Shown piece after piece: positions 1 to 53,904 of a DNA stretch of 64,000 nt. The notes beneath the pieces were generated by a model that saw nothing but the letters and a program-made list of their open reading frames with translations, was not told the DNA's origin and searched no databases. Source of the DNA: Nemertoderma westbladi (Eukaryota; Animalia; Xenacoelomorpha); the NCBI GenBank assembly GCA_032718475.1, contig JAUCBJ010009113.1:1-64000 (forward strand). Direction: 5' to 3'. Positions within the stretch are counted from its first letter, which is position 1, and each line of letters opens with the position of its first letter. Made by a program: the position numbers and the translations under genes.

Positions 1-54
1 AGAAGACATTCTAATTTGGCGGGTTAAACTGCCAAAGGTCTGAAAGCGCGAACA
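1..54 (+). mobile_element. 3' tip of an LTR (3' or solo LTR) of the same family as the outer BEL element
   Basis: Matches 20340-20393 and 48206-48259 with one mismatch and ends ...GCGAACA. It is followed by ACTTC (predicted TSD), not by the internal sequence ATAACGG. Confidence 0.9.
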
Positions 55-6063: not shown

Positions 6064-6136
6064 AATATATATTGAAATAGCTCCACATGCATTATAAGGA
6101 GTAATTTTTAACCTGGGGGAGTAGTTGGTGGCCGCA

Positions 6137-15100: not shown

Positions 15101-16436
15101 TTGAGACTGACAAGAAATCGACCTCCGCACATTTATCCCTTTTTACTACTACTGTGAGGTTTCTTTGAGACTGACAAGAAATCGACCTCCGCACATTTAT
15201 CCCTTTTTACTACTACTGTGAGGTTTCTTTGAGACTGACAAGAAATCGACCTCCGCACATTTATCCCTTTTTACTACTACTGTGAGGTTTCTTTGAGACT
15301 GACAAGAAATCGACCTCCGCACATTTATCCCTTTTTACTACTACTGTGAGGTTTCTTTGAGATTGACAAGAAATCGACTTCCGCACATTTATCCCTTTTT
15401 ACTACTACTGTGAGGTTTCTTTGAGATTGACAAGAAATCGACCTCCGCACATTTATCCCTTTTTACTACTACTGTGAGGTTTCTTTGAGATTGACAAGAA
15501 ATCGACCTCCGCACATTTATCCCTTTTTACTACTACTGTGAGGTTTCTTTGAGACTGACAAGAAATCGACCTCCGCACATTTATCCCTTTTTACTACTAC
15601 TGTGAGGTTTCTTTGAGACTGACAAGAAATCGACCTCCATACATTTATCCCTTTTTACTACTACTGTGAGGATTCTTTGAGACTGACAAGAAATCGACCT
15701 CCGCACATTTATCCCTTTTTACTACTACTGTGAGGTTTCTTTGAGACTGACAAGAAATCGACCTCCGCACATTTATCCCTTTTTACTACTACTGTGAGGT
15801 TTCTTTGAGACTGACAAGAAATCGACCTCCGCACATTTATCCCTTTTTACTACTACTGTGAGGTTTCTTTGAGACTGACAAGAAATCGACCTCCGCACAT
15901 TTATCCCTTTTTACTACTACTGTGAGGTTTCTTTGAGATTGACAAGAAATCGACCTCCGCACATTTATCCCTTTTTACTACTACTGTGAGGTTTCTTTGA
16001 GATTGACAAGAAATCGACCTCCGCACATTTATCCCTTTTTACTACTACTGTGAGGTTTCTTTGAGACTGACAAGAAATCGACCTCCGCACATTTATCCCT
16101 TTTTACTACTACTGTGAGGTTTCTTTGAGACTGACAAGAAATCGACCTCCACACATTTATCCCTTTTTACTACTACTGTGAGGTTTCTTTGAGACTGACA
16201 AGAAATCGACCTCCGCACATTTATTCCTTTTTACTACTACTGTGAGGTTTCTTTGAGACTGACAAGAAATCGACCTCCGCACATTCATCCCTTTTTACTA
16301 CTACTGTGAGGTTTCTTTGAGACTGACAAGAAATCGACCTCCGCACATTTATCCCTTTTTACTACTACTGTGAGGTTTCTTTGAGACTGACAAGAAATCG
16401 ACCTCCGCACAATATTTATCCCTTTTTACTACTACT
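6137..16436. repeat. 64-bp satellite, ~160 near-identical copies
   Basis: Unit ACATTTATCCCTTTTTACTACTACTGTGAGGTTTCTTTGAGACTGACAAGAAATCGACCTCCGC. Variants cluster at the edges; true length is uncertain because of the gap. Confidence 0.98.
6432..6531. other. Assembly gap (100 N)
   Basis: Run of N inside the 64-bp array. Confidence 1.
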
Positions 16437-18271: not shown

Positions 18272-19196
18272 ATGAGAGAAAAAAGTAAAAATTGGGCACC
18301 AAGGCCGGCCAGAACTCCGGAAAAAACGGCGTATAATTATTGGACTTATTGCATTTGTGCTAGTGGCGATTGGAGCTGGTGTAATCGGGTGGTTTCTGGC
18401 AAATCAAGACAATGAAAATAGATTGGGGATACCAACATCGGCAGTCCCAAATACTACCGGCAATGATAGGCCTACTACTGGCTGGGAAGGCATCACTGGG
18501 ATACAGCTAGTAGTGAGTTATCCACCATCGAGAGTACAGCTAGTAGTGAGTTATCCACCACCGAGAGTACAGCTAGTAGTGAGTTATCCACCACCGAGAG
18601 TACAGCTAGTAGTGAGTTATCCACCACCGAGAGTACAGCTAGTAGTGAGTTATCCACCACCGAGAGTACAGCTAGTAGTGAGTTATCCACCACCGAGAGT
18701 ACAGCTAGTAGTGAGTTATCCACCACCGAGAGTACAGCTAGTAGTGAGTTATCCACCACCGAGAGTACAGCTAGTAGTGAGTTATCCACCACCGAGAGTA
18801 CAGCTAGTAGTGAGTTATTCACCACCCAGAGTACAGCTAGTAGTGAGTTATCCACCACCGAGAGTACAGCTAGTAGTGAGTTATCCACCACCGAGAGTAC
18901 AGCTAGTAGTGAGTTATCCACCACCGAGAATACAGCTAGTACTGAGTTATCCACCACCGAGAGTACAGCTAGTAGTGAGTTATCCACCACCGAGAGTACA
19001 GCTAGTAGTGAGTTATCCACCACCGAGAGTACAGCTAGTAGAGAGTTATCCACCACCGATATTACTACTACCACGACAACAATGACCTCAACCACCATCT
19101 CCAATAAGGATGACTTTTATCATTCGTTTATCGAATGCAATGCTGCACGACATTGTGATCCCTACACTCATTCTCATATATGCAATATTGCGACAC
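18272..19196 (+). pseudogene. 5' part of an intronless type II membrane protein gene with mucin-like stalk (continues at 48260)
   Basis: ATG at 18272, frameshift in an A-run, then RKKRR-IIIGLIAFVLVAIGAGVIGWFLA signal anchor, a frameshift near 18501, (STASSELSTTE)n, and a Thr-rich then Cys-containing segment up to TSD GACAC. Confidence 0.65.
18500..19059 (+). repeat. 33-bp coding tandem repeat, ~17 copies (STASSELSTTE)
   Basis: Unit AGTACAGCTAGTAGTGAGTTATCCACCACCGAG. Confidence 0.95.
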
Positions 19197-20393
19197 TGTA
19201 AAAGCTTTTGCGTAATTAGCCGGTTATTTTCCCTTAAAGTACTCTGTAGTTGGTTTGCCAGGCATAAAAAGGCCGTGCCCTTGCTGTACTGGTGTTTTAG
19301 GGGACATAAAAGTCATTTCTTATGTATTTGTACTGTATTTGTACTTTAGAGGACATAATCCACAATCTCGTGACGCAATAGCTGGATACTTTGAAAACAG
19401 TGTCGCTACCATGACGACGGCTAGCAGCTGATATTGCCACGTCGACGTTTCTTTGTTTCTTTGTTCTCTCGTTGTTCAGGTTGACCAATCAGAGCGTTTG
19501 TTGTCTCTGTGTTGAAGGTGTATACAGAAACTCAGTAGTTCAGTGTTATGTTTTTGCCCAGAGCCTAAGAACCGGCTTTTGGCACCTCCGTGTTTTCAGT
19601 TTTAGTCTTACACTAGTAGGCTTAATTATAAGGACATATATCCGTTATCTGATGTCTGATCACTGCATTTATCACAACATAACATACCATACCTAATCAA
19701 ACAACCTGTGCATACTTTTATATTGTTATACTGCTATTTACTGTCAGTTCTTCATAATATGGTTGATGAATTATTATATTTGGAATAACGATAAATAACC
19801 CCGAAACCCAATATTCTTGATATACCGAAGGTAAGAGAGAAGGGTTACATATAACAATTGTGACTTATGTTAAAGTGGTTTGAAGTGAATCTAATGTTAT
19901 TTGATAGACCCTACATGATTCGGTCCGTGTTCCTTTTATATATAACTAAAATCAGTGAAGATCGGCAGATCAGTGTGCAGTATTGTGCAGCATTGTGTAT
20001 GAGTGAACCTGATAACGAAGCATTTCCTAAAGAATGCGCCATATATGTGAATTATAACTAAGCCATATCGTTGTGAGTAGTTTAAGTCATAACTCTGTGT
20101 ATATAGATAGAGCGCCACGTCCTAAAGGAACTGTTAATATTTCCCGAAGGTGAATAATATTGTCAGAGATTATATAATACTGTCAGTCGAATAATACATT
20201 AAGCTTACATAGCAATAAGATTAAGCCGTCGAACCCAATCTCCCGGGTATATCCAGCGGGTGAATGATCGCGCACAGATTGGTTTCGACTAGTGTAGTGA
20301 ATTAAATACTTGTCATAGACTAAAAGTGATTTATTATCTAGAAGACATCCTAATTTGGCGGGTTAAACTGCCAAAGGTCTGAAAGCGCGAACA
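19197..20393 (+). repeat. Outer element 5' LTR (1197 bp)
   Basis: TGTAAAAG...GCGAACA; by eye identical to the 3' LTR except for a 5-bp indel near 20175. Confidence 0.97.
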
Positions 20394-20404
20394 ATAACGG
20401 ATAT
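20394..20404 (+). promoter_or_regulatory. Atypical primer-binding site of the outer element (ATAACGGATAT)
   Basis: Occupies the PBS position, has no TGG, and is the exact reverse complement of LTR 19638-19648. Confidence 0.6.
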
Positions 20405-20830
20405 TTAGTCTGTATTGCAGTGTAGGCACTAAATACAGTTTAATATTGTTCTGGTAAGAACAATAACGGATATAGCTTCTTTATTGCAGTAAGCAATAAA
20501 GTTGAAAGTACCGGTCAACCGGTAAACCTGAACGGTACTTCAGTAGGTCAGTAGGCCCAACTGTCAGAACCGGTACTGCCGTAGGTCCGTAGGTCCAACT
20601 GCCAGAACCGGTACTTCAGTAAGTCGGTAGGCCTAACTGTCCTAACCGGTACTTCCCGTATAAGTACAGCAGTATTATTCGATTTTGATAATTATAAGCC
20701 GGTAGGTCTTAATAATTAATCGGGGACGCCTGGTTTTTATTGGGATTTTACTTAGGCCTATTTCTGTCAGTTTTATTTATTTGTAGGCCAGTATTGAGCA
20801 GAAGGCGTGTAAGCCTGATCAGATTGTACA

Positions 20831-21402
20831 GATAATTTGTAGGTTGGACTGTTGTCTGATTGATGTTAGGTCTGAACGGATTACAGTGTGTGTAGAGCCT
20901 GTCCGATAAAGAACGGTTAGGAAGTAGGGGCAGCGAATGCTGTAAGGTAAACCCCCAACTAAAGAATAAGTCGTACTACTGGGTTAGAACGCATACTACC
21001 TAATTATTTCGGAGTCTGCATGTCCTGTAGTTTATTTAGGCTTGAGAGTAGTCTGCCATCGTTTAGTCTGTACTTTGTTTGTGTAAGTATATACGGGTAG
21101 CGTATAATATTTATTTAGATAATTTGTAGGCTGGATAGTTGTCTGGCTGTTATTAGGTCTGAACGGATTGCAGCGTGTGTAGATCACTTGTCCGATAAAG
21201 AACGGTTAGGAAGTAGGGGCAGCGAATGCTGTAAGGTAAACCCCCAACTAAAGAATAAGTCGTACTACTGGGTTAGAACGCATACTACCTAATTATTTCG
21301 GAGTCTGCATATACCGTAGTTTGTTTAGGCTTGATGGTAGTCTGTCAGTGTTCGGTCTGCATTTTGTTTGAGTAGTTTGTACGCGTAGCGTAATATTTAT
21401 TA
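20831..21402 (+). repeat. ~288-bp tandem duplication in the long 5' UTR of the outer element
   Basis: Two diverged copies sharing GTCCGATAAAGAACGGTTAGGAAGTAGGGGCAGCG...; short ~40-bp ACCGGTAC repeats also occur at 20505-20655. Confidence 0.85.
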
Positions 21403-22706
21403 TTCAGAGTTTATGCGATTATCCGCAACATTCATTCCCCAAGTTTGTTCCTACAGTAATTGTGTTTGTTATACATACCGCTATAGTTAAATTAACCCCG
21501 GTACTACACGGGCTGCTTGGCGTAGGTAAAGACTGGTGATTTTGTGCATCGGTCACTCCAGCAGATGCCGTGGTTCTTTTAGCTGTTCAAGTATATTTAA
21601 CTACTGATTATCTGATTATACAAGTACTCGTACCTAATTAGGGTTTAGTGTACAGTGCTTTCCGAAAGTAATTAGTGTAGGCATTATATTTGTGTTGTAA
21701 AGTGGTTGATAGGCACGTTCGATTAGCTCTATTAACTTCTAGGTAGGAACACTCCGTGATACATAACGTAGAACCTATAGCGATACGGCTATAGGTCGTC
21801 AGGCGGTGGTATTTTCCTATCTGGACAACGCAGTGTATTTACTACTACGTTTTATTTTCAAATACCGCAGTACCCTGTCCGTTGTAATAACCAGATTTCT
21901 AACCCTTTGTTAGGCTGGTTTGTAGACTTCTTGTAAAATTACCCAGAAAATTCGTATTTTGTGTTTTTGTAAATTTTTGTGTTTATTTAGAGATTGTAAT
22001 CTCACCCGAATTGTACGTAATTTGTAGTATTAAGTAACTTAGGTAAATTAGAATTATTTGTTTTAGTGTCCTATAAGTAACACTTCACTGAAAGCGCACC
22101 GCTTTGTGTAGTGATTACTCCCCAGAAATAATAACATTTATTTCAAATATTGACAAAACCCATTAAACGGGTATATATATATTATAAATCAACTCAAACG
22201 ATTTATAAATAGTAGGCCTGCCATACAACCATTAGGTCTCAATATCAGTTGGACTACTGCTCAAATAATGGTAATAAAGTAAGTAAAGTAACAAAGTAAC
22301 CCTAAAATTCAGAAATTCAATTATTTAAAATAATTGATATACCGGTATTTACGATAAGCCTATTATCTTTATTTCTATAAATTTAGGCTGAAATTATACC
22401 GGTACTTGTAATTAATTCTAGTCCAGAATTATATATACTACAAACTGTAAGCTGTATACCGGTATTCCCGATAGGCCTATTATATATTTATATATATTTG
22501 TGCTAAAATTATACCGGTATTCTGTGATAAACCTAGTCTGTAATAATACTTTTATAGTTATATATACTATAAGCATACCGGTGTTCTAATATATTATATA
22601 TATATCCTACTACACTGAGTAGCAGTATCGGTAATTAATTACTAGGCTAGCAGTTAATACTGAGTTACTAGACTTGCTCAGACTGTAATACAGCAGTAGA
22701 CATTCA

Positions 22707-23232
22707 ATGGTATACATAGATATGTCTGATACTAAGCAGAACCTGTCAGACAGTTTATTAGATGTAACTATCTGTGACTCAGATAGAGACGTAGAACCGT
22801 CTGGTCGTAAGTTCAGTTCACCTCCCACTGTGAGGAAGGTCATCCCTCCTATAGTAATAACCGAACCTAGGCTGGTCCAACATCGTAGGTCTATCATAGG
22901 CACTCGAGCTCAGGTCAAGCGGGACCAAGAAGCAGCAGAACAGCAACAACCCGCGAGACAAGAACTTATTTCTCAGCGGCCCAACAGTTCCGGTAGTGAT
23001 CATACTGTAGAGCTGACACCTGAGCGCGGAGCAAAGATGACGGATGCGGTTTATTCGGATCCCCTTCTCATCCTTCCTGCAGCCGTACTCACCAGGTTAT
23101 TGATCGCTGTGGAAGAACACCAGATCGATTGGGCGAGAAGCCAGCGTTCAACTAGAGATAGTTATGCTGGATACACAAGAGAAGAACTGAAGTCCATGGT
23201 CGAGTCGCAATGGAACTTCCCCGGACCCGGAC
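22707..23232 (+). pseudogene. gag: Outer element gag, N-terminal part (interrupted by the inner element)
   Basis: Removing 23233-40131 and one TSD copy joins ...WNFPGPG in frame to LPFDLSEAAWEDIHRMGVAKE... of the 40181 ORF. Confidence 0.9.
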
Positions 23233-25180
23233 TAATTGAAGAGATACGCCTATTCCTACTATTGGAAGAGACGGTAACAATACCTGCAATATCTTACTGT
23301 AAAGTTTGTAAATCAAATCATAAATCCGACCTTCTCACCAAAACAGTAAACTCTAAGTAAGCGAATATATTGCAGTATCGATCTCTTATAACCGGTGAGG
23401 CAGAAAACAGTCTACGAGCAGACAAACTTCGATAAAACAAAATCCCGCGCAGCGAATCCTAAAATCAGGCTGACTCACTGACGGACTAAAGGGCTCGTAT
23501 ACTTTGCCGCGGTGTGATTTATATAGTTGGGCAAAGGGACGCTAGCTAGGTACAGAGGCAGATATTTGGAGATGTCTAACTAGCGAGCAAAGTGCAGTAA
23601 GGACGAAAGTTAATTTTATATATTTTGAGGTGTAAAGAATTTCTAACGCGCGTGTGTCAATTCTGAACGGTCAAAGCAGTTTTGCTCCTTCACATATATA
23701 ATTACTGGGTACGGTGTGCATTTTACGAATATTCTAATTTTATAACTTGTAGGTCCAATACTCACGAATGATAAGGTTCCTTCCCCTCTTGCGTATTTCC
23801 AGGACTCAAATTCAGGCATAGGGTTAATGCTACGCCCAGAATTCGGCAATTTTAGGTACCAGGTCCCTGATACTAAGAAGAGATGTGTTAGTTTACTACT
23901 GTAGGCGTACGGGTACTAATAGCTATCCTGGCTCCTATCTAGAATTTTAGTCACCCAGGTAGTCCGGGTAACTTCCTATTAGGGCGTTGGCGGGGACACG
24001 GTAGATGTTAGTATATCCCTGATAGCCTCAATTTATTTGCGCCTAGTGTAAACTGCCCTACCGCCTGAACGGTACAATCCCAATTCAGGTGAAAACACAG
24101 CAACCCCCCTAGCCTACAAGTTCTAATGCAATGGACACTGTCGTACTACAAATAGTCGCACACACACCTGTACTTAGCAAGAGTTAAGCGTACAGTTTGC
24201 TGCACCCTAACCAATTGTATGCCTTGTACCGGTGTGCCTACGTCCTATCTGCGTACTAGTATCTGCCTGCGCTCTCTCCCTCCCCCGTAGGAATATGAAG
24301 GTCTACTGCGGTTTTTTCCTGAATCAAGACAGTACAGCCCCTATGATGTAATTTTAGGCTTACAGCGTGTCACTACGTCTACCTTTTGATCTTTTGGTCT
24401 TACACTTAGGTAGCAAGGATCGAACGCTGTCTAACCTTTCAGGCGATGGGCGAATAACTCTAGATGGTATTGCGGGTTGTCTCTCGTCTACATTCCCCCG
24501 ATGTTCCCGTTCATTGCTGCGGCCCGATCTCTAGCCGGCCATCCTGTCCCTTAAGTTTGTTCACCGTAGTGAATCATGGTAAAACAGATAGAAAAGCAGA
24601 TTAGCGATAATTCTGACTTTATTACAGAAGATATAATTATAATACAATGTAATCTGAAATAAACTAAGCACGACAGAATATTGATAAGATAATCTGAGAA
24701 GTAGAAGTGAATATAGATTGAGATATAAGATTGAAGTAGTGAACTAATGAACGAAATCGCACCTTTATATACCAAATTTGTGCCGCAATCAATCGAGAAA
24801 ATTCTCAATTGTTCTATGGGTTCTAACAGGGTTTTAAAGATAGCTATTGGTCCAGCTAATATATAACTTGCACGACATTGGTTACAATCAAATAACTACA
24901 GTCTCATTGGTACAGACAAATGCAATTAATTTGTAGCGGTTAATTTAAATGAGTTGAAATTCTGCACAAAAAATAATTCGCAATTACTAGGATTCGAACT
25001 CGATACCTACTACACATATAATTTCCAACGCTCTACCAACTGAGCTACTGAACCACTTGACCGATAGGCGCACAAATGATAGAACCAATACGAATGAGAA
25101 CTCAAAGCAATCTTTACAAAGTTAATTCGAATAAAATAAAATTTTGAAAATCCATGGCATTTAGGGAATATAATTCTATA
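23233..25180 (-). repeat. Inner element 3' LTR (1948 bp), TA...TA termini
   Basis: Direct repeat of 38182-40131 with ~5 substitutions and a 2-bp indel seen by eye. TATATAAA at 24764-24771 and AATAAA at 24032-24037 on the minus strand. Confidence 0.95.
24968..25054 (-). ncRNA. tRNA-derived Pol III-type unit inside the inner 3' LTR
   Basis: GGTTCAG-TAGCTCAGTTGGTAGAGC (A box, intact D-arm) ... GAGTTCGAATCC (B box) ... T6 terminator; no canonical acceptor or anticodon stems. Confidence 0.65.
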
Positions 25181-26070
25181 CCGCTCCATGAAAACAGGAT
25201 ATTATCGTGCATAAAATATACGGTTTTCACCAATAATCAATCAAACTATAGAATACTTAGGGCGTACTTACATATTTACAATTAAATTTCAAATAATACT
25301 TCCTTTCTACGTAATGATTCACTACAAAAATAATTACAAATTCAAACTTTACGTATTTAAGGCTTTACTAAGTAAGTACAATATAAATCTAAATTAAATT
25401 CACCAATATAAATCTATTGCATCTCAAATATTGCATAAATTCAAACAATTAAAAATACAAATAAATGAAAATATTGCATCTCAAATATTGCATAAATTCA
25501 AGTAATTACAAATACTTTCGTACCTAAATGTAGATTGCATAAGTTTGGAATAATTACAAATATGAGTCTTTCTGAGCACAAAATTTTCTAACTATAAAAC
25601 TTTCTAAATACAAAATATAACACTTTACAAATGAAACTATAAGAAAGGCCCACGAGTCTTCCATCTACTCTTACTTTCGATTTCACTGTAAATACAAATA
25701 CTGCTTATAAGATATAAATTGCATAATATTCGGAACAATATAAATTGCATAAGTTCGGAATAATATAAATTGCATAAGTTCGGAATAATCACAAATATAA
25801 AATATAAATTCTTACTAAATATAAATCTTTACTAAATATAAATATAAACTGCATAAGTTTAGAATAATATAAACTCCTTTGCATCTCAAATATGAAACAT
25901 AAATCTTTCAAATATAAGTTCCTTCTAAATATAAACCTTCTAAATTTCATAAATTTGGAACAATACAAATTGCATAAGTTCGGAATAAACACAAATATAA
26001 ATATAAATTCAAATAAATCACAAATCATAAGAAAGGCTCACGAGTCTTCCGTCCACCCTTGCCCTCCCTT

Positions 26071-27773
26071 TTATCGTTTTGTGGATCGAGCCCTGCCGCG
26101 TCCTCGAAAACTGCGCACAGGTGACTTTGCTCGCGATATGGGACTCGTGGGGCGAGTCACTGGTTTACTTGGGACGTTGAGAGACGGTGCGACCATTTCC
26201 TCACAAATTCGTCTATTTGGCATCCCAAAACCTCGACCAATTCCTCGTGACCGATCAGTCGTCACTACAGTTGGTAGAACGTCTGGGAACGCGCGAGAAG
26301 TGGACGACGCAGACCCAAGAGTAGCTTGCGCCCCCTGTTGATCAGCTGGTGTATGTCCCGATCCTCCTACTGGTTCTCTTGGAAGTGATACCGTATCCCG
26401 AGTAACTCGAATAGTCGGCTCAACTCCCTTGCGTTCTTCTACATTAATAATTTTCTTTAATTGTTGGCCCACTTTCTGGACCCGTATGATCCTACCCTGT
26501 CCGTCCTCCCGAGGGTGACGTGCAGACGGCGCAACCGGAGTGGCTGATATATTTGTCGCCTCTAGGACCTCCTCTTCCTCGAATACGCTCGCTCGTATAC
26601 GTTTGTGGTAAAACGCGGCTCGGTACGCCCATGCGACGGTTAATCAAGCTCCCTTGTTCCGCTTTTCGGTTCGGAAACGATCGAATTCACCATACGTAAT
26701 CCGATTAACGACTTTCTGAAAATTCCACGTGTTTTTGTTATCCGGGTGAATCTGTAGTAGATACTCGCGCACCACTCGGAATCCGCTGTCGTGGGGCAAA
26801 ATATCGACAACCTCGATAAGTTCGTCATATTGGGGCATAGCGGAGATATATCCTTCCGACATCATCGTTTGAGGATTTACCGCCCAAAATCCGAGATGCG
26901 CTCTCATCGGAAACCGTCTTCTTTGTGCTGATACATGTTCGTCGGCTAAATCTTCCCACTCGTCAAATAATTTCCTCACGAGTTTTACAGATTCGTGTTC
27001 ATAAGGTATGTCCCTTAGTTGGCATTCAGATGCTCGATGTCCCTTTATATTGCAATAAGTACATTGAGCCATAAATCTCCAGCAAGTATAAAAGGTATGA
27101 GACCCTTGATCCCCACACCATCCACAGATTAGCTGAGTCGTAGTAATGTGCTTTCCACTGCACTTTGTCATATGATGTCCAGCGACGCCACATTTACTAC
27201 ACATCGTATTGGCAGGGTACCACACTCGTTCGTATATAAGATCTCCAATCGGTCGAGCGCTTCCTCCCATACTATAATCGTAATCATCTGGGTCTATGGG
27301 TTGGTAGGTTTCTGAAGGTTGTATACAAACTATAGCATCTGTTGCTTCAAGTTGTCGAATCTCCGTCTGAGATTTCTTCGGGAGGTTCCTTTCTATCTCA
27401 AGAAGTTCCTCTAAAGGATCGTCGGCGATCGTAGTAGTTACTTCGAATTCATCACCAAGGTGACCGATAGGCGCGCGCGTCTGCCGTGATTCATCCATAA
27501 TCTCCACGACACGCTCTCCTTCATAGGGCAACAATGCAAACACAGATGGCCCTCCGACAAGAGATCCCGCACAGCGAAGATGCACGTCTCGAAATATGCT
27601 AAATCCTGCTCGAGTAAAGGCATTGCTGTCTTTGCGAGCTTCGCTGTACTTTCTGATAATTCCTTTATACCAAATATAGTGTAGTCTTTTGCTCCAAATC
27701 GTTCGAATGAAGCTGCCGCTTCCTCTTGGATATCATATCCCCATCTCGGCTCTCCTTGTATCCCTTTCTCCAT
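26071..27773 (-). pseudogene. Accessory ORF between pol and the 3' LTR: three CCHC zinc knuckles and an RG-rich tail
   Basis: CSKCGVAGHHMTKC, CGWCGDQGSHTFYTC and CTYCNIKGHRASEC. 26644-27585 continues in frame past a single TGA to 26071; upstream ORF 27438-27773 overlaps in another frame. Confidence 0.75.
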
Positions 27774-30334
27774 AATTAGAGGTGTAGTTACATAATCATT
27801 ACTACTAGAGGGAATACAACAGAGTTTGTGGTTAGTTGTGAGGAGACGTGAGAGTTTCGTCTGCCCTTTGGGCTCGACAACGCTCTAACCTCCTACCCAT
27901 AGCCTAAGATCTAGGGTTTCTTTAATGACACGCTGCTTCTTATCTAAAATTTTTTGCCGAAATAAAAACGAATTTGGGCTAAACTGGCTGTGAGTCTAAA
28001 ATACTCACTTTTGATCCCAAACTATTATCAGAAAATAAGCAGTCAAGAATTAGTAATAAATATAGGGGAGTCTATTTTGACGTAACTTATTGAAACAAGA
28101 CCGTGTAAAATTTAATTAAAATTTTAAGAAAGGCTCGCAAGTCTTCCTCTCTTGTTTCTCTAATTTTAAGTTCCACCCGACTGTACCCTGAAATCTATTC
28201 ACTGGAGAAAATTTTAAAAATTTTTCAAATCCAAATGGATTGTCTAAAATTTCGAAAATGTCTCAATATTGTGAGTTCCAAGTAGAATTCCATTTCTTAT
28301 ACCTACAAATCCCGCTCCTATGTGACACATAAGGGTACCACCCTCAATGTTCACATATAAAGACAATGGAATTCTACCGCTGTCCTTACTACGGTGTACA
28401 GGTACGTGGAAATCTATTTGTAAACTCCTAATTATTTACTAGTATTAGGTGGAGATTTGTAGTCTCCAGACTCGTTACGAGTCTCTTCAAGAAGTACGAG
28501 ACGTTGAGTCGGTCTGTCTACTGTTCGACCGTCAATTGTCCGTACCGTCACAGTTCTTGTCACTCCATCCATAGATGGATGTGTGGCTAAAATTACACCT
28601 GTTATCCAGAAGCGTCTTTTTAGATTCACTTCCGCTAACAGCACGTGATCTCCCGGCTTTAATGCGCGGGTGTTATTGTACCAGTTTGTTCTGGCAGAAA
28701 TAGAGGGCAAATAATGGTTTTGCCATATTTCCCAGAATTTGTTAGAAAGTAGTTGCGTGATTTTCCACGCTTTTCTACCGTAGCTGTCGCTTTCTATTGG
28801 AATAGAAATCGGCGTCAATGTGGTCGGTGCCTGCATAAGCAGGTGTGCCGGTGTTAAAGCGAACTGAGATTGTTTGTCATCGGGTACTAATACTATTGGT
28901 CTAGTATTTAGTATTGCCTCGATTTCAACAAACAATGTTGTCAGTTGGTCGTCTGTCAATATGTGGTTTACTGGAATGACCTTTGCCATTGCCGTCTTTA
29001 TAGATCTAATCAATCTCTCCCAGACTCCGCCTCTCCAAGGACTATCTGGAGGATTAAACTTCCAAACAATCTTGTGAGGTTGTAGTTCGTTCGAGATTTG
29101 ATCATGATCTAGTTTCTTAAAGGCTCTAGCAATCTCATTCCGAGCACCAACAAAGTTTGTCCCTTGGTCTGAGTACAAGCATTTTACTAGTCCGCGTCTA
29201 GCGATAAATCGCCGCAGTGCTAGTATAAACGCGTTGGTGGAAAGATCCATCACACGTTCAATGTGAACTGCCCTACTGGACATACATGTGAAAATCAGTC
29301 CCCAGCGTTTTACTAGTATACGTCCACGTTTCGTATGTATGGGACCAAAGCAATCAATTCCAGTCTCTGTAAAAGGTGGTCTGAATGCTTGAAGTCGTGC
29401 TTGTGGAAGTTCACTCATTTCTTGGGTACCTATTCTAGAGTGTACCTTTTTACAAATAATACACGTACGCGTCACTGAACTTAACGCTTTACTGGGTCTA
29501 ATTAATACAAATCTTGTACGTAAGTAGGAAAGACAGTGGTGTCTTCCAGCGTGTTTCAGATGTAAATGTGCGTCCAGTATCATTGCACGTTGTAGTTCGT
29601 GGTGTTGCGGTATTATTATTGGGTACCTAAAGTTTGTGTTAAAGTCAATGTTTTGAAGCCGAGATTTATGACAAATTAAGCCATTATAAATAATCGGACT
29701 CCAACTCAGTATTGGTGACGACTTGATTGGTTGACCTTGATTTATGGATGTGAATTCGCGCGCGAAATATCGCAGTTGGTAATGGCGAATTAATTTAATC
29801 TCACACCTGTCAATCTCAGCCAATGTAAGTCGACGTGTAAAGTCACGTTTGCCTTTAACGTATTGTACAAAACGTACAATCCACGCTAATTTTCGGCAAG
29901 CGTTTGTCCAAGAATCTGTTAGGTTTACAATCCGGTCGACGTGAGTATTTGTGACGTCATCAGGTAAGTCAATGGAGATTTTGGAAGGTTTTGAATTACT
30001 AGAAGGGCCCATGGGTCCGCCGGTAAGTATTCCCTTGTTGACTGTTGATCCGTCCGGGTCTACAAGTAATTTGTCCTTCTTCGTCTTCTTACCTTGATCG
30101 TCAGTACTTTGTAAGTCGATCGTTAATGGTGGTTTGAACTCTATGGGGTCAGCAGGTTTCGGTAAACTTATTTTCCTGCCGACATTAATCCCAGGTCTCA
30201 CCATAGGTTGCAAGTTTGGTATGTCTCTTGAGCGCAAAGTAACACCTGTATTTACATTAGCGTAGGTACTACCCACATCTGTAATACATGAGGTTTCACC
30301 GTGCTTATGGTTGCTCAAGCGTGTCAAAATTGGT

Positions 30335-30800
30335 AGTTTGTCGATACAAGGCCGCTCCAATAGAGAAACTGCGGCTTTACTGTTTGTCAATACATTACTA
30401 ATGTCCGGTAGAACATTTTGTGATGTTTCTGACAAAATGTCTAGTCGACTGTCTAGTAATGTGTCTGGCGATACGTCTGGTAACGTATCTGGTTGTTTGT
30501 CAATAGAAGGCCGCTCCAATAGAGAAACTGCGGCTTTACTGTTTGTCAATACATTACTAATGTCCGGTAGAACATTTTGTGATGTTTCTGACAAAATGTC
30601 TAGTCGACTGTCTAGTAATGTGTCTGGCGATACGTCTGGTAACGTATCTGTTTGTTTGTCAATAGAAGGCCGCTCCAATAGAGAAACTGCGGCTTTACTG
30701 TTTGTCAGTGTGTTACTAGCGTCTGGTGGAACATTTTGTGACATGTCTGGTTGACCGTCTAGTAACGTGTCTGGTTGACCGTCTGGCGATATGTCTGGTG
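30335..30800 (-). repeat. 159-bp (53-aa) coding tandem repeat, ~2.5-3 copies, in the RNase H-integrase linker
   Basis: GCCGCTCCAA recurs at 30351, 30510 and 30669; peptide LTNSKAAVSLLERP... is repeated. Confidence 0.9.
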
Positions 30801-33800
30801 TAGAAAGGCTCGCAAGTCTTCCTCTCTTGACCTTTGAAGTTATATCTTTCCATTTCGCCTTCGGTTTTTTCTTGAGTTTTGCCGCCGTCGTCCTTTTCTT
30901 TGTCTTCCCCTTTTTTGGTTTCTTGATTTCGGCGTCCTTAGGGATAGTGTTAGATTTGTTGTCGTATAACGGAGGCCAATCTTGCGTCGATTTCTGCAAG
31001 AATTGGGGTCCGTGTTGCCAAAATTCTTTGTTCTCCGGTTTACAGAATTCCTCAGGCATCATTCCTCGCGACGCAATATCAGCTGGGTTTTGTGGTCCGG
31101 GACAATGTCGCCAATCCTCTTTTATTGAACGGTCTAGAATTTCCGCGCGACGGTTAGCTACGAATGTCTTGAATTCGAGTGTGTCGTTGTTTATGTAAAA
31201 TTAAACCAACGTCGCGTCAGTCCAATAAAATATCTGTAAACTCGACTGTAGTTCTGTCTGTATGAGGTTCACGATGGTGGTTGACAGGGTTGCGGCTTGT
31301 AGCTCAGCTCGTGGTGTCGTCATATACTTAGTAGGCATGGTCTTAGCCTTAGAAGTAATGAGCGAAACATCGAACTCGTCTGAGTCTACTTGTCTGCGCA
31401 AGTACGCTGCCACACCAAAACCGTTGTCACTGGCGTCAGAAAAACAGTGTAATTCCAAGTTGTCAGGAAATGTACTTTGTAATGGAAAGTAAACCCTGGG
31501 TATGAAATAATCCTCTAGCGAAGATAATTCCGCCTCCCAGGTCTTCCATAAGTCCACTTGGTCTGATGAGATCGGCTCGTCCCATGTTAGTCCATCCTTC
31601 CATATACTGCGCATATAAATGCGGGCTTGCAGTATCACTGGACTGATGAATCCTAACGGATCGAACAATCGGCTCAATTTTGACAAGCATGATCTCTTTG
31701 TCAGTGTGTTCTCTTGACTGTCCAGTCTCACCTTCACTCGAAAGTTGTCTGTGTTTGGGTCCCAAAAGAGCCCCAACACCTTAGTCGTCGGTAGTGGTTC
31801 GAACTCTAGGTCTATGTCACCACCTCCACGCTCAGTCGTTCCGAATGAGTCTACTAATTCGGCACTGTTTGAGGCGAATTTGGTGAGGTTAAAACCTCCG
31901 CCCGCTAAGCAGTCCCGTAATTGATGTGCTACTGTTGTAGCACGTTCTACTGTGTCGCAACTCTGTAAACCGTCATCGACGTAAAAGTCACGTTCTACGA
32001 TTTTAATTATCTCTGGGTCATATAGATGTTTCTGATCCCTAGCGGCCTGCTTTAGGGCGTACATCGTGCAATTTGGGCTGTCTCTGGCACCGAAAACGCG
32101 AACTTGCATTTGGTAAGTCGCCGGTGGTAAACTTAAGTCTCCTTCCGGGTACCAGAGGAACCGCAAACTGTCTCTGTCTCGCTCTAACGCTCTCACTTGG
32201 TGAAACATCGCTTCAACGTCACAAGTAAAAGCTACTTGACGCTGACGGAAGCGCATAATCACCCCCATAAGATAATTATTCATGTTTGGTCCATCCATCA
32301 ACTCACTATTGAGGGACATTCCCTCAAATAGAGCCGCACAATCATTGACTACGCGTACTTTATCTGGTTTGTCGGGGTGTCTCACATAGTGATGTGGCAA
32401 GTAATATGTTTGGTCAGTCACTATCTCCGGGTTAGTCATTCGGATAGCGTATCCTTTTGTCAAATACGTCTCCATCTGAGTGTTGTACTGCAGATGGGCT
32501 TTCTCGTCCTTTAATAGACGTTGCCGTATTGAATGTAGACGTCTTAAAGCCAGTGGGTAGTTGTTTATAAGTTTAGGACTTTGGCTACGCCATAACATCC
32601 CTACCTCATAATGTCCGTCTTTCGTCTGGTGGATAGTATCTTCCATGATCTTCAGAGATTGTTTCTCCTGTTCCGACATACAAGGTTCGTAGCTACCAGG
32701 TTCAGCTGTATCTTGTTCTAACCACCTGATAGTCTTCTCCGTTAATTCTTTGTCCAAAGCGGCTTGTTCCATTTGATGATTTCTCAACACGTCATCATCG
32801 ATATCGACGGGCACTGTTGAGGTTATTGGGGTAGGTAGACTCGCAAGCCTATCATGTGTCGTCGATGGAATCTCTAGCTGACTTGTCTTCTCCCCAAGTT
32901 CTAAACTCACCTGGTGGGTTAGCTGCTCCTTGTGACTTATCATACTAGTTACACGTCTGTCATGTTTTGTCGACTGTAGTGTAGTATGGTTCACGTCGTG
33001 TGAAAAGGAATGAATTGAATTTGTAGTTAATAAACTACATGTACTTTGTACATCGTCTTCCTCGTCACTTACGTCTAGTGTGCGCACAGGCGCTCGAGTA
33101 TACCACCCTATCGGCGTTCTGCAGGCGTATGCGTTTCCCGCTACAACTGCCGATGGTCTGGTTTCCCACACCTGATGTAGGTTGAATTGGTCTGTCCCGA
33201 TCAGCATGGCTACCGATCTATAATTGACAGGACATTCGGGTACACCTAGGTGTCTGAAATACTTACGGTCCTCTAGAGATTGTTCCGGCACTGGACCTAG
33301 TAGATTACTAAAGTCCTTCGTGGCCGCAAAGGTTAGATCTTTAAAGGGCAACAAAGACCTCTCCCTCTCGCTGTGCTGCGATTTCGGAAGAAGAGAGTCT
33401 AAGTCCAACTTAACTCGTGTCACTGGTATTGCACGCTGTCCGTGCATACTACTTACGGTATAACTGACGTGCTTACCTTGTTTAAGATCCGTCACTACGT
33501 CAGCTATCTTTTCATCCACGTAGCTATGAGATGAGGCTGAATCTAGAATAGCGTAGATTCTTTTACTCCCATTTGTGCCGGTAATCTTAATCGGAATTAC
33601 ACTGAATCCCTTCAGTTGGTCAGTAGTCAGAAGCGCGATCGACGGTTGTTCGTCTCCATTGGAATATTCGTCGTCGTCTTCTAACTCTTCATCCGACGAT
33701 CCGGATTGTTCTGAGAAGCAATCCTCAATATGGGTCACGAAGGTTGGAGTCGTTTTCGATTCTCGCCTTTTGTAGGCCGCATCACATCTCGCTGCTGCTT

Positions 33801-36124
33801 CCGGGTGTTCCCTGGCGAAGCGTTTCGTCGGCGTGTGGCTGTCTGTATGGAGCAGACCGTCATGGTTGCGTCCACAGGATGGACAAGTGTCGGTATTTGG
33901 GCAATCTTTACGGACGTGTCCGTGTCGCGTACACCGCCAACAAGAGTCCAGTGGCCGTATTTGCAGCCGTCGTTCTTCCGAGTTCAACTCGCGAAATTGT
34001 CGACAACCTCGTAACTTGTGACCGATATACCGCTTGCCTAAATGCTCGCAGTATTGGCAGCCGCTGAAGTCGGTACTAAGTTGTTGTCTCGTCTGTTTTG
34101 TCCCAATGGGCGCAGATACCCTACTACCGTCCGAGAATTGTCGTGATTCCGTCGGTGTGGTGTAAGTGGCCGTCTTAGTGGATGTTGTCTGGGGTTTTTG
34201 TCGGTTGGAGGATGGCAATGTGATCCCTTCTGCCACGATGTGCTGGTCAGTGTAGTTAGATCGAGTTTCTACTACTGCCTCCCTGGATATTAAAAGGTAC
34301 ACATCTTCTAATTTTAAGAATCCTCCCCGCTCTTCTCGCTGGTATTCGACCTTTCTCCACTCCCGACGAAGTCGATGGTGGAGTCGTCCTATGATCTTTA
34401 ATAGGACTGTAGGGGTATTCCCGTAATCAAGTTGTCCAATGGATCTTAAGGTAGTGATAGCGTTCTTGATCTCGTCAGCTAGTTTTAATAAGTCGACGGG
34501 TTTAGTGATAGCCCCTCCCTTACAGAGTTCCTCTATTACTGACCTGGCCATACTAACTGTACCTCCGTATATCGAAGTTAAACGATCGTACGCTAGTTCA
34601 AAAGCGTCCGGTACACCGACGAAAGTCTCCGCCAAACGTTTAGGTTCTCCTGACAACGTTTGGAGCAGGTAATCGAACTTCTCCCGTGATGTAAAGGCGC
34701 ACACGGCGATCTGGGATTCGTTATAGTCTACGAAAGTATGCCAGTGTTTTGAGCTACCGGAAAACTTCGGTGGTTGTTGTACCGGCAATCCCTGTCTGGC
34801 TGCGAATTTCGCTATCTCCTCGGCAACGTTCAGAGTTTCGCGTCCTTGGTTGGTACGCTGGTTGATATCCCTTCTTGGCGCTTTTCCCTGATACGATGTG
34901 GGGTTTGAAGGTACCGGTCTTTGTGGTTCCTTCGGGTGTCTATTGTGTTCGAATTCGGAATTTCTCGAACTGTCGGTGTAACCTTCCTCCAGACGTTCCT
35001 CGATCTGAGCCAACTTATTGACAACTGGTCGCAGAATGTCGGCGAACTGTTGTGTACTAATTGCGTCCGTTGGTTGTAACGCCTTCTGTGTTGGTGTATT
35101 CTGTGGAGGATTGTCTGCAAAGGAGTTGTCTGAATGCTCGCGTTTATATTCATCGGCCGCCCCTGTTCTAAATACCTCGCGTTTCGGGTAATCCGATTCG
35201 CTCGAAGTACTACTATCATCCGGATATGGTGGTCGACGTGCTCGCGTCCGTTGCGTCGTTCGAATTCTAACGTTCCGTTTCGGAACATCGTCCACTGATC
35301 TCCGTTGTTCGGTAGGCTCACAAGTCTTCCTCGAAGTCGTAGATTGCGATGTAAATTGGTTGAATGGTCGCGTATCCACTGTTCTCCGTTGTTCGGTAGG
35401 CTCACAAGTCTTCCTCGAAGTCGTAGATTGCGATGTAAACTGAACCGGTGGGCGAATGACAGCATTTGAAACAACTGGCCTTGTGGGTCGAAACGTCATT
35501 GGGTAAGCGTAGTGTGTAACGGGTTTAGGTGTCGACGGTGGACTCACCTGTTTAGTCGTCAGTAGTGCAGGTCCAGTCAACAAACTACTACGATCCGTAA
35601 TCGGTGGGTTACTTACCTTGACTTTCGGAATGGGCGACGACGTTGCTCTTGGCGGTGTAAACTCGTCCGGAATAACAAACCTGTGTTCCGTCGCACCATG
35701 GATAGGAGAAATGTTACTACTACCCGCAATCGAAACAGGTTCCTTAGTCGTAACTGGTGCAAACATATGAGTTACCTGTGGGAATCGTTGACACAAGTCC
35801 TTTACTAATTGTCGTTCCCGTCCGGGTGCTCCCACGCTTCCTTCCTTCTTCCGTTCCTGAATTTGGCGATGTCTTACCTCTATCTGGTCCAAGTCATGTC
35901 CGTCTCGAGATCTCATTGATCGATCGCGGGCTAGAAGATCCAGATTTTCCTTGGCTTCGGCTACTTCTCTCGCCTTCTTCTCGAGTTCGAAATGGAGTTT
36001 AGCTGTCTTCTCTCGTTGTTCCGTTTGTTGTCGTTGCGCCTCAAACTCCGCTTGTCGTATAGCGGATTGAGCTTTTATTTGCCGTGTTTTCATTTCGGCC
36101 CGTGCTTCCGAAACTAATCTTTCT

Positions 36125-36360
36125 CTCTCTAAATCAGCCGCTGCGTTTCGTCGCTCTAAATCAGCCGCTGCGTTTCGTCGCTCTAAATCAGCCGCTGCGT
36201 TTCGTCGCTCCAAATCAGCCGCTGCCATTTGTCGCTCTAACTCGACCGCTGCGTTTCGTCGCTCCAAATCAGCCGCTGCGTTTTGTCGCTCCAAATCAGC
36301 CGCTGCCATCTGTCGCTCTAACTCGACCGCTGCGTTTCGTTGCGCTAAATCAACCGCTGC
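36125..36360 (-). repeat. 27-bp coding repeat (NAAADLERR) in inner Gag
   Basis: About 9 copies visible in DNA and protein. Confidence 0.9.
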
Positions 36361-38170
36361 TGTTTGTTGGGCGATGTCTACCTCTAACCTTTCTACTTCA
36401 GCTGCTTCTAATTCAGCTTGTTCCTGTAGATGAGAGATTCTCGCTACATTTGCAACGCGCAGCTTCTCTTCCTCTACTGCTGCCTGCATCACTAGAAGTT
36501 GAGCTTGTTCCTCGATTTCTCGTTGTTGTTGGTAGAATTCTTGCTGTTGTCGAGCAACTTCTGACGTGACCATACTTCCCTCGCAGATTTCGCTACGAAT
36601 ACTTACCAGCGATTGATTTAGTATTCCCGGTGCCGATTCGATTTGTGCGAATGAAGTTTCCTTCGTATATTCCGGCACGGTTTCCAAATCACCGACGTCT
36701 TCGCCGCACATGCGTAAGTGGTCCGTCAGGTGTTTCAATTGTCCATCCAGTCGGTACAGTTCCTGTTCTTCCTCGGGTTGTAATAATTCGTCCGAAACTG
36801 ACTCACCTAACAACTGGTCCGCTTGTTCCTGTTGTATCTGTCTAATCGTCGACTTAAACTGAATCAGTTTCTCTCTAGCGATCATTAGTTTCTCGAGGAT
36901 TCTAAGTTGAGTATCCACGTCCTGTCTCTGTCTAGCTAGATCTTGTAGACCAATTAGGTTATCTACGGACTTGTGTACTCTACTTTGTACTCTAACCTGG
37001 AGGGTGTAGAACTCGAATCGAGACATCGGAGCGGTCAACTCGTCTAATGTGCGTTGGCCTTCCCCAATACTCCTGGTTATATGCGCCATATATCCTCCGA
37101 CGCTTCTAACCACACTTTCTGTGCTTCCTGCTGAACTTACCATGTCCGATTCCCTATATCTAGGTTGCGGAACAATTAGAAAGTCCTCGGTCCTGCCGTC
37201 GCCTCGTACTACGGCATCCGGTACTCCCGTTGGATGTACTGGTGACGCACACGGTGTAGGTTCGGTAGGCTCGCGAGTCTTCCCCTGTTGTTCTTCCGCT
37301 GCTGACTTATCTCCGTTGCATGAGTCATAGTCGGTAGGTGTGTTCTTCGTATAGTCTTGTTTGTCACTCATTTCGGTAGTTGTAAGTCAAGTAAAGTGAG
37401 TGTCAAAGTATCGAGTTTACCGTATTTATCTAAACGGTACTAATTACAGTCTTATAAAATTAGCCTACCGGCCGATTTTATAGCAGATGGATAAAATTAG
37501 CCTAAAACGGCCAATTTTACAGCAAATAAATGTCACGGAATAAGTATATAATAAAATTAGCCTAGCGGCCAATTTTATAACAAATAAATCGGATAACGAT
37601 ATGCGTTATCAAAAGGTAAATTAAATACAATAATACGGACTAATTCAGCAACGAACAAAGAAATCATACGGAATGCATAAATACTTGAGACAGTGGAACC
37701 CACAATAATTTTAACTAATACGGTAATGCCTAACTTATTTATGCAACTTTTCGAACTCACCCACTCCAATAATTCTCCAGAAAAACAGATTCCCAGATAC
37801 AAACCGGACGTGAACCTTTCCGTTTTTAACGTTGCGGACGAAACGCGATTTTCCCAACCAAAGTTGTTGAGTTATCTATCTCCCAAACTTGCTAAACACG
37901 GTCTTGCTCCCGTTACAGTCTAGAAATGAGTTCTGAATCCTGAAAAACAAAAGAGTTAGGTTTTACTTTACGAAAAATTTTTGTACCGGTACAATATGGT
38001 ATTTAAACCCTTTTAAACACCGGTATTCAATTCCAAAAATATTTTACACGCGGTTCAAATCAAATTTTATTTCAAAAAATTAGCACTTAGCTAATCAAAT
38101 ACAAAATTTTTACCTCAAAATACAAAATTTTCAAATAACTTTAGTCCTACCGAACCGTAGTTCAGTAAAA

Positions 38171-38180
38171 CATATTCCTA
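38171..38180 (-). promoter_or_regulatory. Atypical primer-binding site of the inner element (TAGGAATATG)
   Basis: 1 nt after the 5' LTR end, no TGG, and exactly complementary to LTR sense segment CATATTCCTA at 39239-39248. Confidence 0.55.
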
Positions 38181-38181
38181 A

Positions 38182-40131
38182 TAATTGAAGAGATACGCCT
38201 ATTCCTACTATTGGAAGAGACGGTAACAATACCTGCAATATCTTACTGTAAAGTTTGTAAATCAAATCATAAATCCGACCTTCTCACCAAAACAGTAAAC
38301 TCTAAGTAAGCGAATATATTGCAGTATCAATCTCTTATAACCGGTGAGGCAGAAAACAGTCTACGAGCAGACAAACTTCGATAAAACAAAATCCCGCGCA
38401 GCGAATCCTAAAATCAGGCTGACTCACTGACGGACTAAAGGGCTCGTATACTTTGCCGCGGTGTGATTTATATAGTTGGGCAAAGGGATGCTAGCTAGGT
38501 ACAGAGGCAGATATTTGGAGATGTCTAACTAGAGCGAGCAAAGTGCAGTAAGGACGAAAGTTAATTTTATATATTTTGAGGTGTAAAGAATTTCTAACGC
38601 GCGTGTGTCAATTCTGAACGGTCAAAGCAGTTTTGCTCCTTCACATATATAATTACTGGGTACGGTGTGCATTTTACGAATATTCTAATTTTATAACTTG
38701 TAGGTCCAATACTCACGAATGATAAGGTTCCTTCCCCTCTTGCGTATTTCCAGGACTCAAATTCAGGCATAGGGTTAATGCTACGCCCAGAATTCGGCAA
38801 TTTTAGGTACCAGGTCCCTGATACTAAGAAGAGATGTGTTAGTTTACTACTGTAGGCGTACGGGTACTAATAGCTATCCTGGCTCCTATCTAGAATTTTA
38901 GTCACCCAGGTAGTCCGGGTAACTTCCTATTAGGGCGTTGGCGGGGACACGGTAGATGTTAGTATATCCCTGATAGCCTCAATTTATTTGCGCCTAGTGT
39001 AAACTGCCCTACCGCCTGAACGGTACAATCCCAATTCAGGTGAAAACACAGCAACCCCCCTAGCCTACAAGTTCTAATGCAATGGACACTGTCGTACTAC
39101 AAATAGTCGCACACACACCTGTACTTAGCAAGAGTTAAGCGTACAGTTTGCTGCACCCTAACCAATTGTATGCCTTGTACCGGTGTGCCTACGTCCTATC
39201 TGCGTACTAGTATCTGCCTGCGCTCTCTCCCTCCCCCGTAGGAATATGAAGGTCTACTGCGGTTTTTTCCTGAATCAAGACAGTACAGCCCCTATGATGT
39301 AATTTTAGGCTTACAGCGTGTCACTACGTCTACCTTTTGATCTTTTGGTCTTACACTTAGGTAGCAAGGATCGAACGCTGTCTAACCTTTCAGGCGATGG
39401 GCGAATAACTCTAGATGGTATTGCGGGTTGTCTCTCGTCTACATTCCCCCGATGTTCCCGTTCATTGCTGCGGCCCGATCTCTAGCCGGCCATCCTGTCC
39501 CTTAAGTTTGTTCACCGTAGTGAATCATGGTAAAACAGATAGAAAAGCAGATTAGCGATAATTCTGACTTTATTACAGAAGATATAATTATAATACAATG
39601 TAATCTGAAATAAACTAAGCACGACAGAATATTGATAAGATAATCTGAGAAGTAGAAGTGAATATAGATTGAGATATAAGATTGAAGTAGTGAACTAATG
39701 AACGAAATCGCACCTTTATATACCAAATTTGTGCCGCAATCAATCGAGAAAATTCTCGATTGTTCTATGGGTTCTAACAGGGTTTTAAAGATAGCTATTG
39801 GTCCAGCTAATATATAACTTGCACGACATTGGTTACAATCAAATAACTACAGTCTCATTGGTACAGACAAATGCAATTAATTTGTAGCGGTTAATTTAAA
39901 TGAGTTGAAATTCTGCACAAAAAATAATTCGCACTTACTAGGATTCGAACTCGATACCTACTACACATATAATTTCCAACGCTCTACCAACTGAGCTACT
40001 GAACCACTTGACCGATAGGCGCACAAATGATAGAACCAATACGAATGAGAACTCAAAGCAATCTTTACAAAGTTAATTCGAATAAAATAAAATTTTGAAA
40101 ATCCACGGCATTTAGGGAATATAATTCTATA
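38182..40131 (-). repeat. Inner element 5' LTR (1950 bp), TA...TA termini
   Basis: Minus strand TATAGAATT...CTTCAATTA, flanked by TSD CGGAC. Confidence 0.95.
39919..40005 (-). ncRNA. tRNA-derived Pol III-type unit inside the inner 5' LTR
   Basis: Copy of 24968-25054 (A box, B box, T6). Confidence 0.65.
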
Positions 40132-44704: not shown

Positions 44705-45627
44705 ATAAATAATAAGCAAATATTAATTATTTAATATTTGCAAATCTAATAAATCAAAATCTGTAAATTCAGATCCTTCAACAATTCTAGTCAATTAAGA
44801 TATCGTAGCATTTACCGATATTCTTAAAAAGACAATTGTCATAGAATTAAGGATCTTGTGTCCCCAGACATATTCTAGAATCAAAATATGTCCATTTAAT
44901 TATCAAATAATAAAATTTCAGGGAATAATTTAAATTCATGCCTTTTAATGAATTTAATAAATTGCCATTTTTACGCAATTTATAACATTCCCAAAATTCC
45001 ATTAATTAATAGATCAAGGGAGCGGAGATTTATCTTATTATGCCTATGAGTGTGCGAAAGTCTCCCAAACATAGTCAATAGCCGATAAAATTCATAAAGT
45101 CATGTATAAAACCGAACATTGACTATTAAAGAATACTATTAAATAACATCCCAGATCTGTATGCATTGGAATTACCCTAATTCTACCGCTAGCTTTGCAT
45201 AATGTCACCATAGCAACAACCACGCTAGAATTAGAATTGAGTTAAAAGAACAATAGAAAGCTTGTCCCATTGAATAGCATAGGGAATAAATAGCGCACTA
45301 CTAGTATCCAAGGATACATAATAATACAGTGACATTCTGGAAGGCATTGACTAACGGACAAATGGCCCGAATGTGCGTAGTTGTGACCAGTTGTGTGGTA
45401 TTTGTGAGTTTATAGGTGAATGTTACTGCTAAGGTGTGTTTACAGTAGCTAGTCGCAATCGTAAAAGTAACCTAACTCTCCAAGGAAAACCTGAAGTACA
45501 TCTAAGCCTTTGGGACGGACAGTTGAGTGACTTGTGCCGGTTGTCGTTGTCGTTGTGCGGCTACGTCGTTGGCGAAAGTACAGCGGCGACGACACATCGG
45601 CGCTGAGGATCTCGTACTGTCCGGGGG

Positions 45628-47040: not shown

Positions 47041-47067
47041 GACTTAAATCCCATTTTCTGGGAGCGG

Positions 47068-53883: not shown

Positions 53884-53904
53884 GAAAAAATATTTTTTTT
53901 ATTA

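Follow-up and report, generated by a model that had tools for sequence, protein, structure and literature searches.

The question raised by this locus is how reverse transcription is primed in two BEL/Pao retrotransposons, one nested in the other, that lie within a 64-kb stretch of Nemertoderma westbladi DNA (the window, by which we mean the whole stretch analyzed). To our knowledge, the mode of priming has not been shown so far for any BEL/Pao element. An earlier reading of the letters alone (the sequence-only reading) had proposed that both elements use RNA of their own long terminal repeat (LTR) instead of the 3' end of a tRNA. We found that the putative primer-binding site of each of these two sister elements pairs with an 11-nt segment of its own LTR, and this segment probably serves as the minus-strand primer in place of a tRNA.

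Self-comparison of the window delimited the outer element at 19197-48259 on the plus strand. Its 5' LTR (19197-20393, 1197 bp, TG...CA) differs from the 3' LTR (47068-48259) by a single 5-nt indel, and the element is flanked by the target-site duplication GACAC (19192-19196 on the left, 48260-48264 on the right). A polypurine tract (47058-47067) adjoins the 3' LTR. The 5' part of gag (22707-23232) is split from the remainder by the inner element, and a second coding stretch (40137-44704) carries gag-protease and an N-terminal reverse transcriptase (RT) that stops short of the catalytic motif. Coding thus ends in the first part of RT, and this copy is devoid of most of RT, RNase H and integrase; no pol remnant was seen past the N-terminal RT. 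The only Pfam families detected were DUF1759 and the N-terminal RT.

The inner element (40131-23233, minus strand, 16.9 kb) is inserted in the outer gag, with a 5-bp target-site duplication at 23228-23232 and 40132-40136; contigs with the empty site are also present in public runs. Its LTRs (5', 38182-40131, 1950 bp; 3', 23233-25180; both minus) are 99.6% identical, and a polypurine tract (25181-25187, minus) adjoins the 3' LTR. The LTR ends are TA...TA, which is atypical compared with the usual TG...CA. From the single copy in the window, this parse is inseparable from one that is one base longer; the flanks of other inner-family copies in public run X4 depart at 40131 and 38182, which gives TA...TA. 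The gag-pol frame (31201-37371, minus) encodes DUF1759, zinc knuckles, protease, RT with a YVDD motif and Peptidase_A17/RNase H. It is closed by an in-frame stop at 31201-31203, behind which the 3' part of pol (28432-31200, minus) encodes the integrase zinc finger (below the Pfam cut-off), the integrase core and DUF5641. DUF1759, Peptidase_A17 and DUF5641 all scored above the cut-off. An extra open reading frame of 284 amino acids (26644-27498, minus) is CCHC-rich and zinc-knuckle-like; it had no Pfam match, and all Atlas leads for it were under 0.9. With LTR pairs more than 99.5% identical and 5-bp target duplications, both elements are young insertions.

Domains, LTRs, polypurine tracts and target duplications place both elements in BEL/Pao (Belpaoviridae). 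The RT-RNase H region of the inner element is 36 to 43% identical to BEL-type proteins in databases, the named ones being from marine invertebrates. Among 124 proteins compared, the inner element was the best match of the outer proteins. The two formed sister rows and a long-branch pair in a quick tree (SH-aLRT 95), which is unrooted, has no named BEL/Pao references among its rows and has an outer row filling 37% of the columns.

Upon re-reading the letters, we confirmed the two complementarities on which the sequence-only reading was built, including their coordinates. The outer site (20394-20404, plus strand) is the exact 11-nt reverse complement of LTR positions 19638-19648, and on the minus strand 38180-38171 complements 39248-39239 exactly over 10 nt. 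The 11-nt outer site starts at the first base past the 5' LTR (offset 0). The inner site spans 38171-38181 (minus), of which 10 nt pair here and 11 nt in other copies, and in the window copy the pairing begins one base past the 5' LTR. Both candidate self-primer segments, 19638-19648 (plus; 3' LTR copy at 47509-47519) and 39238-39248 (minus; 3' LTR copy at 24288-24297), are contiguous and intron-free. A primer split by an intron was considered in the window's own LTRs and rejected, as the best junctions reached 8 and 9 nt, less than the contiguous 11 and 10 nt. The absence of a TGG-initiated site also held, in that the first 6 bases after both LTRs are free of TGG. The two pairs had been described as independent of each other. 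Their letters do differ; their origin, on the other hand, is shared, since each element is the best match of the other and the two are sisters in the tree.

We compared the match lengths with several controls. Dinucleotide-shuffled LTRs reached the observed length in 6 of 3000 cases for the outer element and 44 of 3000 for the inner, and other start points in the non-coding internal sequence did so in 4 of 438 and 18 of 789, respectively. When each site was matched to the LTR of the other element, only 5 and 7 nt paired, and exact complements of both sites were confined to the LTRs. The inner match taken alone is therefore modest, being reached in about 1.5 to 2% of controls, and a genome scan covers many elements; these points are what speaks for reading the matches as chance, or as functionless relics of local inverted duplications. 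Taken jointly, the outer and inner matches are not chance-like.

The surroundings of the sites, which add supporting detail for self-priming, are also alike in the two elements. In both, a unit made of the LTR end and the site has been duplicated, and the site has been kept while neighboring sequence diverged. In the outer element, an old 69-nt duplication of LTR end, site and hairpin (20458-20501, plus) retains 16 identical nucleotides, covering the LTR end and the site, and has diverged over the remainder. In the inner element, a 28-nt duplication of LTR end and site left a partial second copy of the site at 38200-38208 (minus). This upstream copy now lies within U5, as would be expected if priming at the outermost of the two copies had shifted the LTR end. 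Hairpins are predicted directly 3' of the site in both elements: at 20410-20438 (plus, z -2.2) and in the duplicated unit (z -3.1) for the outer, and at 38145-38170 (minus, 11 bp with a UACG loop, z -4.8) for the inner.

Covariation between site and segment was assessed within the inner family only, which reaches a very high summed depth (not a copy number) in contigs from public runs. At position 38181, almost every contig in four runs has a letter other than that of the window, so that in those other copies the inner pairing is 11 nt long and begins at the LTR edge, the same geometry as in the outer element. Within the segment, a variant at 39246 had a share of 13% (run X1), 15% (X3) and 94% (X4). 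Its exact partner change was found in the site at 38173, at 25% (X1), 22% (X2), 19% (X3) and 31% (X4), across three samples; together the two changes turn a U-A pair into a C-G pair. The change at 38173 was expected from 39246 beforehand, though a first set of contigs had already given a hint of it. Across 141 bases, 6 substitution sites were listed at a frequency of at least 1%, and only 38173 and the window-private 38181 exceeded 5%. The two positions were counted separately, as they lie 1.07 kb apart and the contigs are too short to link them; their shares are up to twofold apart, and those of X4, from two contigs, conflict (94% in the LTR versus 31% in the site).

To follow the pairing across related families, as the sequence-only reading had advised, we used 79 BEL/Pao loci from a metagenome scan; scans of viral contigs yielded no relatives. 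For 16 loci, the terminal repeat fixed the position of the 5' LTR end, and these were scored; 10 entered a looser scan, and 53, in which neither LTR boundary was fixed, were left unscored. In two loci (L032 and L049) the second repeat copy ends at the contig end, and in L021 the LTR start was not fixed. The site paired with its own LTR over at least 10 nt (10 to 15) in 14 of the 16 scored relatives, compared with 12 of 290 cross-family pairs. Such a match occurred in 10 of 11 family groups (our own grouping), and the letters of the site differ among groups. A lack of the LTR complement in sister families, which had been named as evidence that would speak against self-priming, was thus not what we observed. 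The two misses were read by eye: L035 shows 12 pairs, including one G-U, across a junction, and L028 shows 13 contiguous nucleotides, though at a distance of 8 nt from the end of the repeat, in a copy that has diverged. In the looser scan of loci without a located LTR end, 6 of 10 matched over at least 10 nt (control, 17 of 90), which lends the pairing weak support. TGG was found near the LTR end in 1 of the 16 relatives, and that site still matches its own LTR junction. In several families the offsets of the polypurine tract and of the site from the LTR seem to agree.

In 13 of the 14 matching relatives, the LTR carries a GT-AG intron (GT...YAG), and the site finds its partner only in the sequence joined by removing it. 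These introns are 67 to 329 nt long, mostly with GTAAG donors and pyrimidine tracts, and short complements of the site lie directly behind pyrimidine-rich AG sites. The AG in front of the segments was considered as a transcription start site; this was dropped because upstream donors extended the match. A first pass, limited to consensus-type donors and one intron, gave 11 of 14 loci matching over 10 to 15 nt; the junction rule was then widened to any GT and two loci were added, giving the 14 of 16. The exception, L001, pairs contiguously without splicing. The two sister elements of the window also match unspliced, unlike the 13 relatives. The position of L001 amid junction types in the unrooted tree suggests that the intron was lost repeatedly, and the window lineage possibly carries its primer ready-made through such a loss. 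The presence of two matching elements, the expected compensatory variant and the matches of the relatives against their controls leave chance or relics very improbable; the variant at 38173 and the relatives have already largely refuted that reading.

Half-tRNA priming is known from Drosophila copia. This precedent lends some credit to a host RNA, such as an internal or half tRNA or another small RNA, as the primer, in which case the LTR segment would pair with the site in a regulatory role, masking it or governing packaging or translation. The same explanation gains from the ICTV account, in which Belpaoviridae are tRNA primed (PMC8742986). A host primer would be expected to fix the letters of the site, but the inner site is polymorphic in step with its LTR, and the site differs among 11 related family groups of which 10 match their own LTR. 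Moreover, a match that exists only at a splice junction is what is expected of a site copied from spliced LTR RNA. We therefore consider priming by a host RNA unlikely. A tRNA primer encoded by the elements was not seen either: ARAGORN detected no tRNA gene in the window and none in the 20 relative loci, out of 79, that it covered, and Rfam gave no match at E<=1 within 19100-48400.

The end of an LTR is defined by the 3' end of the primer, and any primer must therefore pair at this site. In retroviruses, the site is written anew from the primer during plus-strand synthesis. When a site tracks its own LTR, and does so even where the match spans a splice junction, the simplest reading is thus that it records an LTR-derived primer. 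Covariation within the inner family and across families accordingly supports a self-priming BEL lineage as the best reading of these sequences, as had been proposed.

We next consider where the segment would lie in the transcript. The inner LTR contains a promoter-like block (39715-39861, minus), predicted from motifs, with three putative CCAAT boxes about 30 nt apart and a presumed TATA box at 39722-39715, about 470 nt upstream of the segment. As the sequence-only reading had cautioned, the inner segment would then probably lie inside R, unlike the first 11 nt that prime Tf1. In relatives, poly(A) hexamers, where present, lie 17 to 135 nt downstream of the segment, which fits a location in R. 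Two motifs allow other arrangements. If the TATAAG that lies 11 nt upstream of the outer segment were used, transcription could start downstream of that segment; if the AATAAA at 39574, which precedes the inner segment, were used, the inner segment could fall in U5. In run X5, tentatively classed as RNA, contig cover was flat and low, including over U3, with none over the segment or the site.

Structure prediction fits self-priming less well. When whole leaders were folded, 3 of 9 cases contained the site-segment helix, and the first site of the outer element was not among them. A second helix like that of Tf1 ranked in the top 2% for the inner element and L077 only, among 17 elements (rank 0.01 for the inner and 0.70 for the outer), and was not predicted in 14 of 15 relatives. 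A common variant at 39222 falls within this helix of the inner element, with no partner change listed. By these predictions, the three-duplex structure of Tf1 does not seem to be general among these elements.

The poor fold-back over 745 to 1057 nt would not be needed if the primer were a separate short LTR RNA, arising from solo LTRs, the 3' LTR or early termination and trimmed at its end to the segment, with the genomic RNA left uncut. Such an RNA would account equally well for all covariation, and would explain how the intron survives in the genome alongside a spliced primer in the relatives. At the 3' end of the segment, though, neither the window elements nor the relatives have a terminator or poly(A) signal. 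Forming that end would still take a specific step, and we regard a separate RNA as an unlikely source.

In the reading that we favor, priming from the element's own genomic transcript, transcription would start upstream of the segment and so place it inside R. The segment would anneal to the site either within one RNA, by fold-back, or from one co-packaged RNA to another. Cleavage directly behind the 3' end of the segment would free a 3'-OH; by analogy with Tf1, the agent is probably the RT/RNase H of the element. RT would copy U5 and the remnant of R and then jump to the 3' R. Plus-strand synthesis would copy the primer, rewriting the site from the LTR segment in each cycle and keeping the pair in step. 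In most relatives, the primer sequence would form only once the GT-AG intron of the LTR has been removed. Whether BEL/Pao as a whole is in large part tRNA free, primed by an internal piece of its own R that the host spliceosome assembles in most families, with the intron lost in the window lineage and site and segment changing together through re-copying in each cycle, we hold to be evenly balanced.

The closest known system is that of Tf1 and Tf2 of Schizosaccharomyces pombe, members of the Tf1/sushi group. In the available portions of the Tf1 studies, these elements likewise have no tRNA site, and a site of about 11 nt abutting the 5' LTR pairs with their own LTR RNA (PMC7175516; 10.1101/2022.12.06.519325); priming involves RNase H cleavage of that RNA (PMC7175516) and a three-duplex "pretzel" structure (PMC7175516; 10.1101/2022.12.06.519325; PMC5341516). 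The window elements differ from the Tf1/sushi group (Ty3/gypsy chromoviruses) in having BEL/Pao proteins; neither had a Pfam match to a chromodomain, and BEL families were matched instead. They further differ from Tf1 in that the segment probably lies 40 to 450 nt within R, whereas Tf1 uses the first 11 nt, in that the pretzel does not seem to be general, and in that the primer of the relatives is split by an intron. We conclude that the feature in the window is real and that it likely marks a tRNA-free, LTR-primed BEL/Pao lineage, similar to Tf1 in its working and not a member of Tf1/sushi.

Compared with the ICTV description of Belpaoviridae (PMC8742986), the elements share LTRs, a polypurine tract, a single gag-pol, the order PR-RT-RH-IN, BEL-type Pfam families and an animal host. 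That description gives an 18-nt site complementary to the 3' end of tRNA-Arg or tRNA-Gly, LTRs of 0.2 to 1.2 kb and genomes of 4.2 to 10 kb, and calls replication poorly understood; in contrast, the window elements have no tRNA-type site, and the inner one has LTRs of 1.95 kb, a length of 16.9 kb and TA...TA ends. The missing tRNA-type site departs from the description, and the elements stay in the BEL/Pao group as defined by RT. Fungal GalEa Copia elements and bivalve TRIMs resemble them in lacking a canonical site and having a hairpin just inside the 5' LTR; as far as the available part of PMC6934838 goes, the complementarity of those elements takes the form of a local inverted repeat within the internal region, and no primer is named, whereas the window elements have their partner in the LTR, where it covaries with the site. 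The words PBS and tRNA occur neither in the main text of a BEL/Pao survey (PMC3118150) nor in the Sinbad paper (PMC554778), and the survey text also lacks primer and intron. BEL self-priming is absent from the available portions of PMC3601003, PMC3286476 and PMC6934838, and the literature searched, which had subscription journals, Repbase, GyDB and supplements outside its scope, contained no report of self-primed or splice-primed BEL/Pao elements.

The contribution of this window is twofold: a long-branch pair that carries the intron-less form, and a naturally occurring compensatory polymorphism. The two-allele pair sits in the very abundant inner family, which makes the question directly testable. 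If the proposal is true, self-priming here would represent a second origin of tRNA-free priming, with a geometry unlike that of Tf1; in the relatives, priming would further depend on splicing by the host. The failure of tRNA-based annotation to find a site in such elements would then be explained, and a simple sequence rule for locating the primer would be available. Self-priming would also imply that these elements escape control by tRNA 3' fragments.

Behind its 5' LTR, the outer BEL/Pao element carries a 2.3-kb leader (20394-22706), in which we found tandem repeats of 38 nt and 289 nt. At the other end of this element, non-pol sequence (44705-47057) stands in place of the end of RT, RNase H and integrase, and includes a 101-amino-acid ORF (45706-46011) with no assigned family. 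The outer family is represented by a third LTR too, whose end opens the window (1-54); unrelated sequence follows it, and not the primer site.

Satellite arrays with units of 46, 64 and 147/167 nt occupy 4118-16436 and 51356-64000, the last of them switching orientation near 53885, and positions 6432-6531 are a gap of 100 N.

In-frame tandem repeats of 159 nt (30331-30799), 27/81 nt (36120-36365) and 33 nt (40820-41008) lengthen the RNase H-integrase linker of the nested inner element and the gag of both elements. Behind its integrase, the inner element has an additional 284-amino-acid ORF (26644-27498, minus strand) with several CCHC knuckles, for which the Atlas leads, scoring 0.80-0.89, were zinc-knuckle proteins resembling hexamer-binding proteins.

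The inner LTR ends in TA...TA (38182 and 40131), a symmetric departure from TG...CA, and the 5-bp target duplication is normal. Within U3, an A box, a B box and a T run form a tRNA-like block (39919-39998, minus strand), with a second copy in the 3' LTR. The block resembles a fragment of a Pol III gene or a SINE; ARAGORN, scanning the window, and Rfam, searched over 19100-48400 at E<=1, gave no match to it. Directly downstream of the TATA box, the stretch 39527-39700 is hypervariable, since few public-run contigs cover it and several segments are replaced among copies.

We also noted the spacing at the LTR ends in five related BEL/Pao loci (L011, L022, L029, L032 and L049). A gap of 0 between the polypurine tract and the 3' LTR occurred with a gap of 0 from the 5' LTR to the primer site, the bases complementary to the element's own LTR, and a gap of 2-3 with one of 2-3. 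In these relatives, the first spacing seems to track the second.
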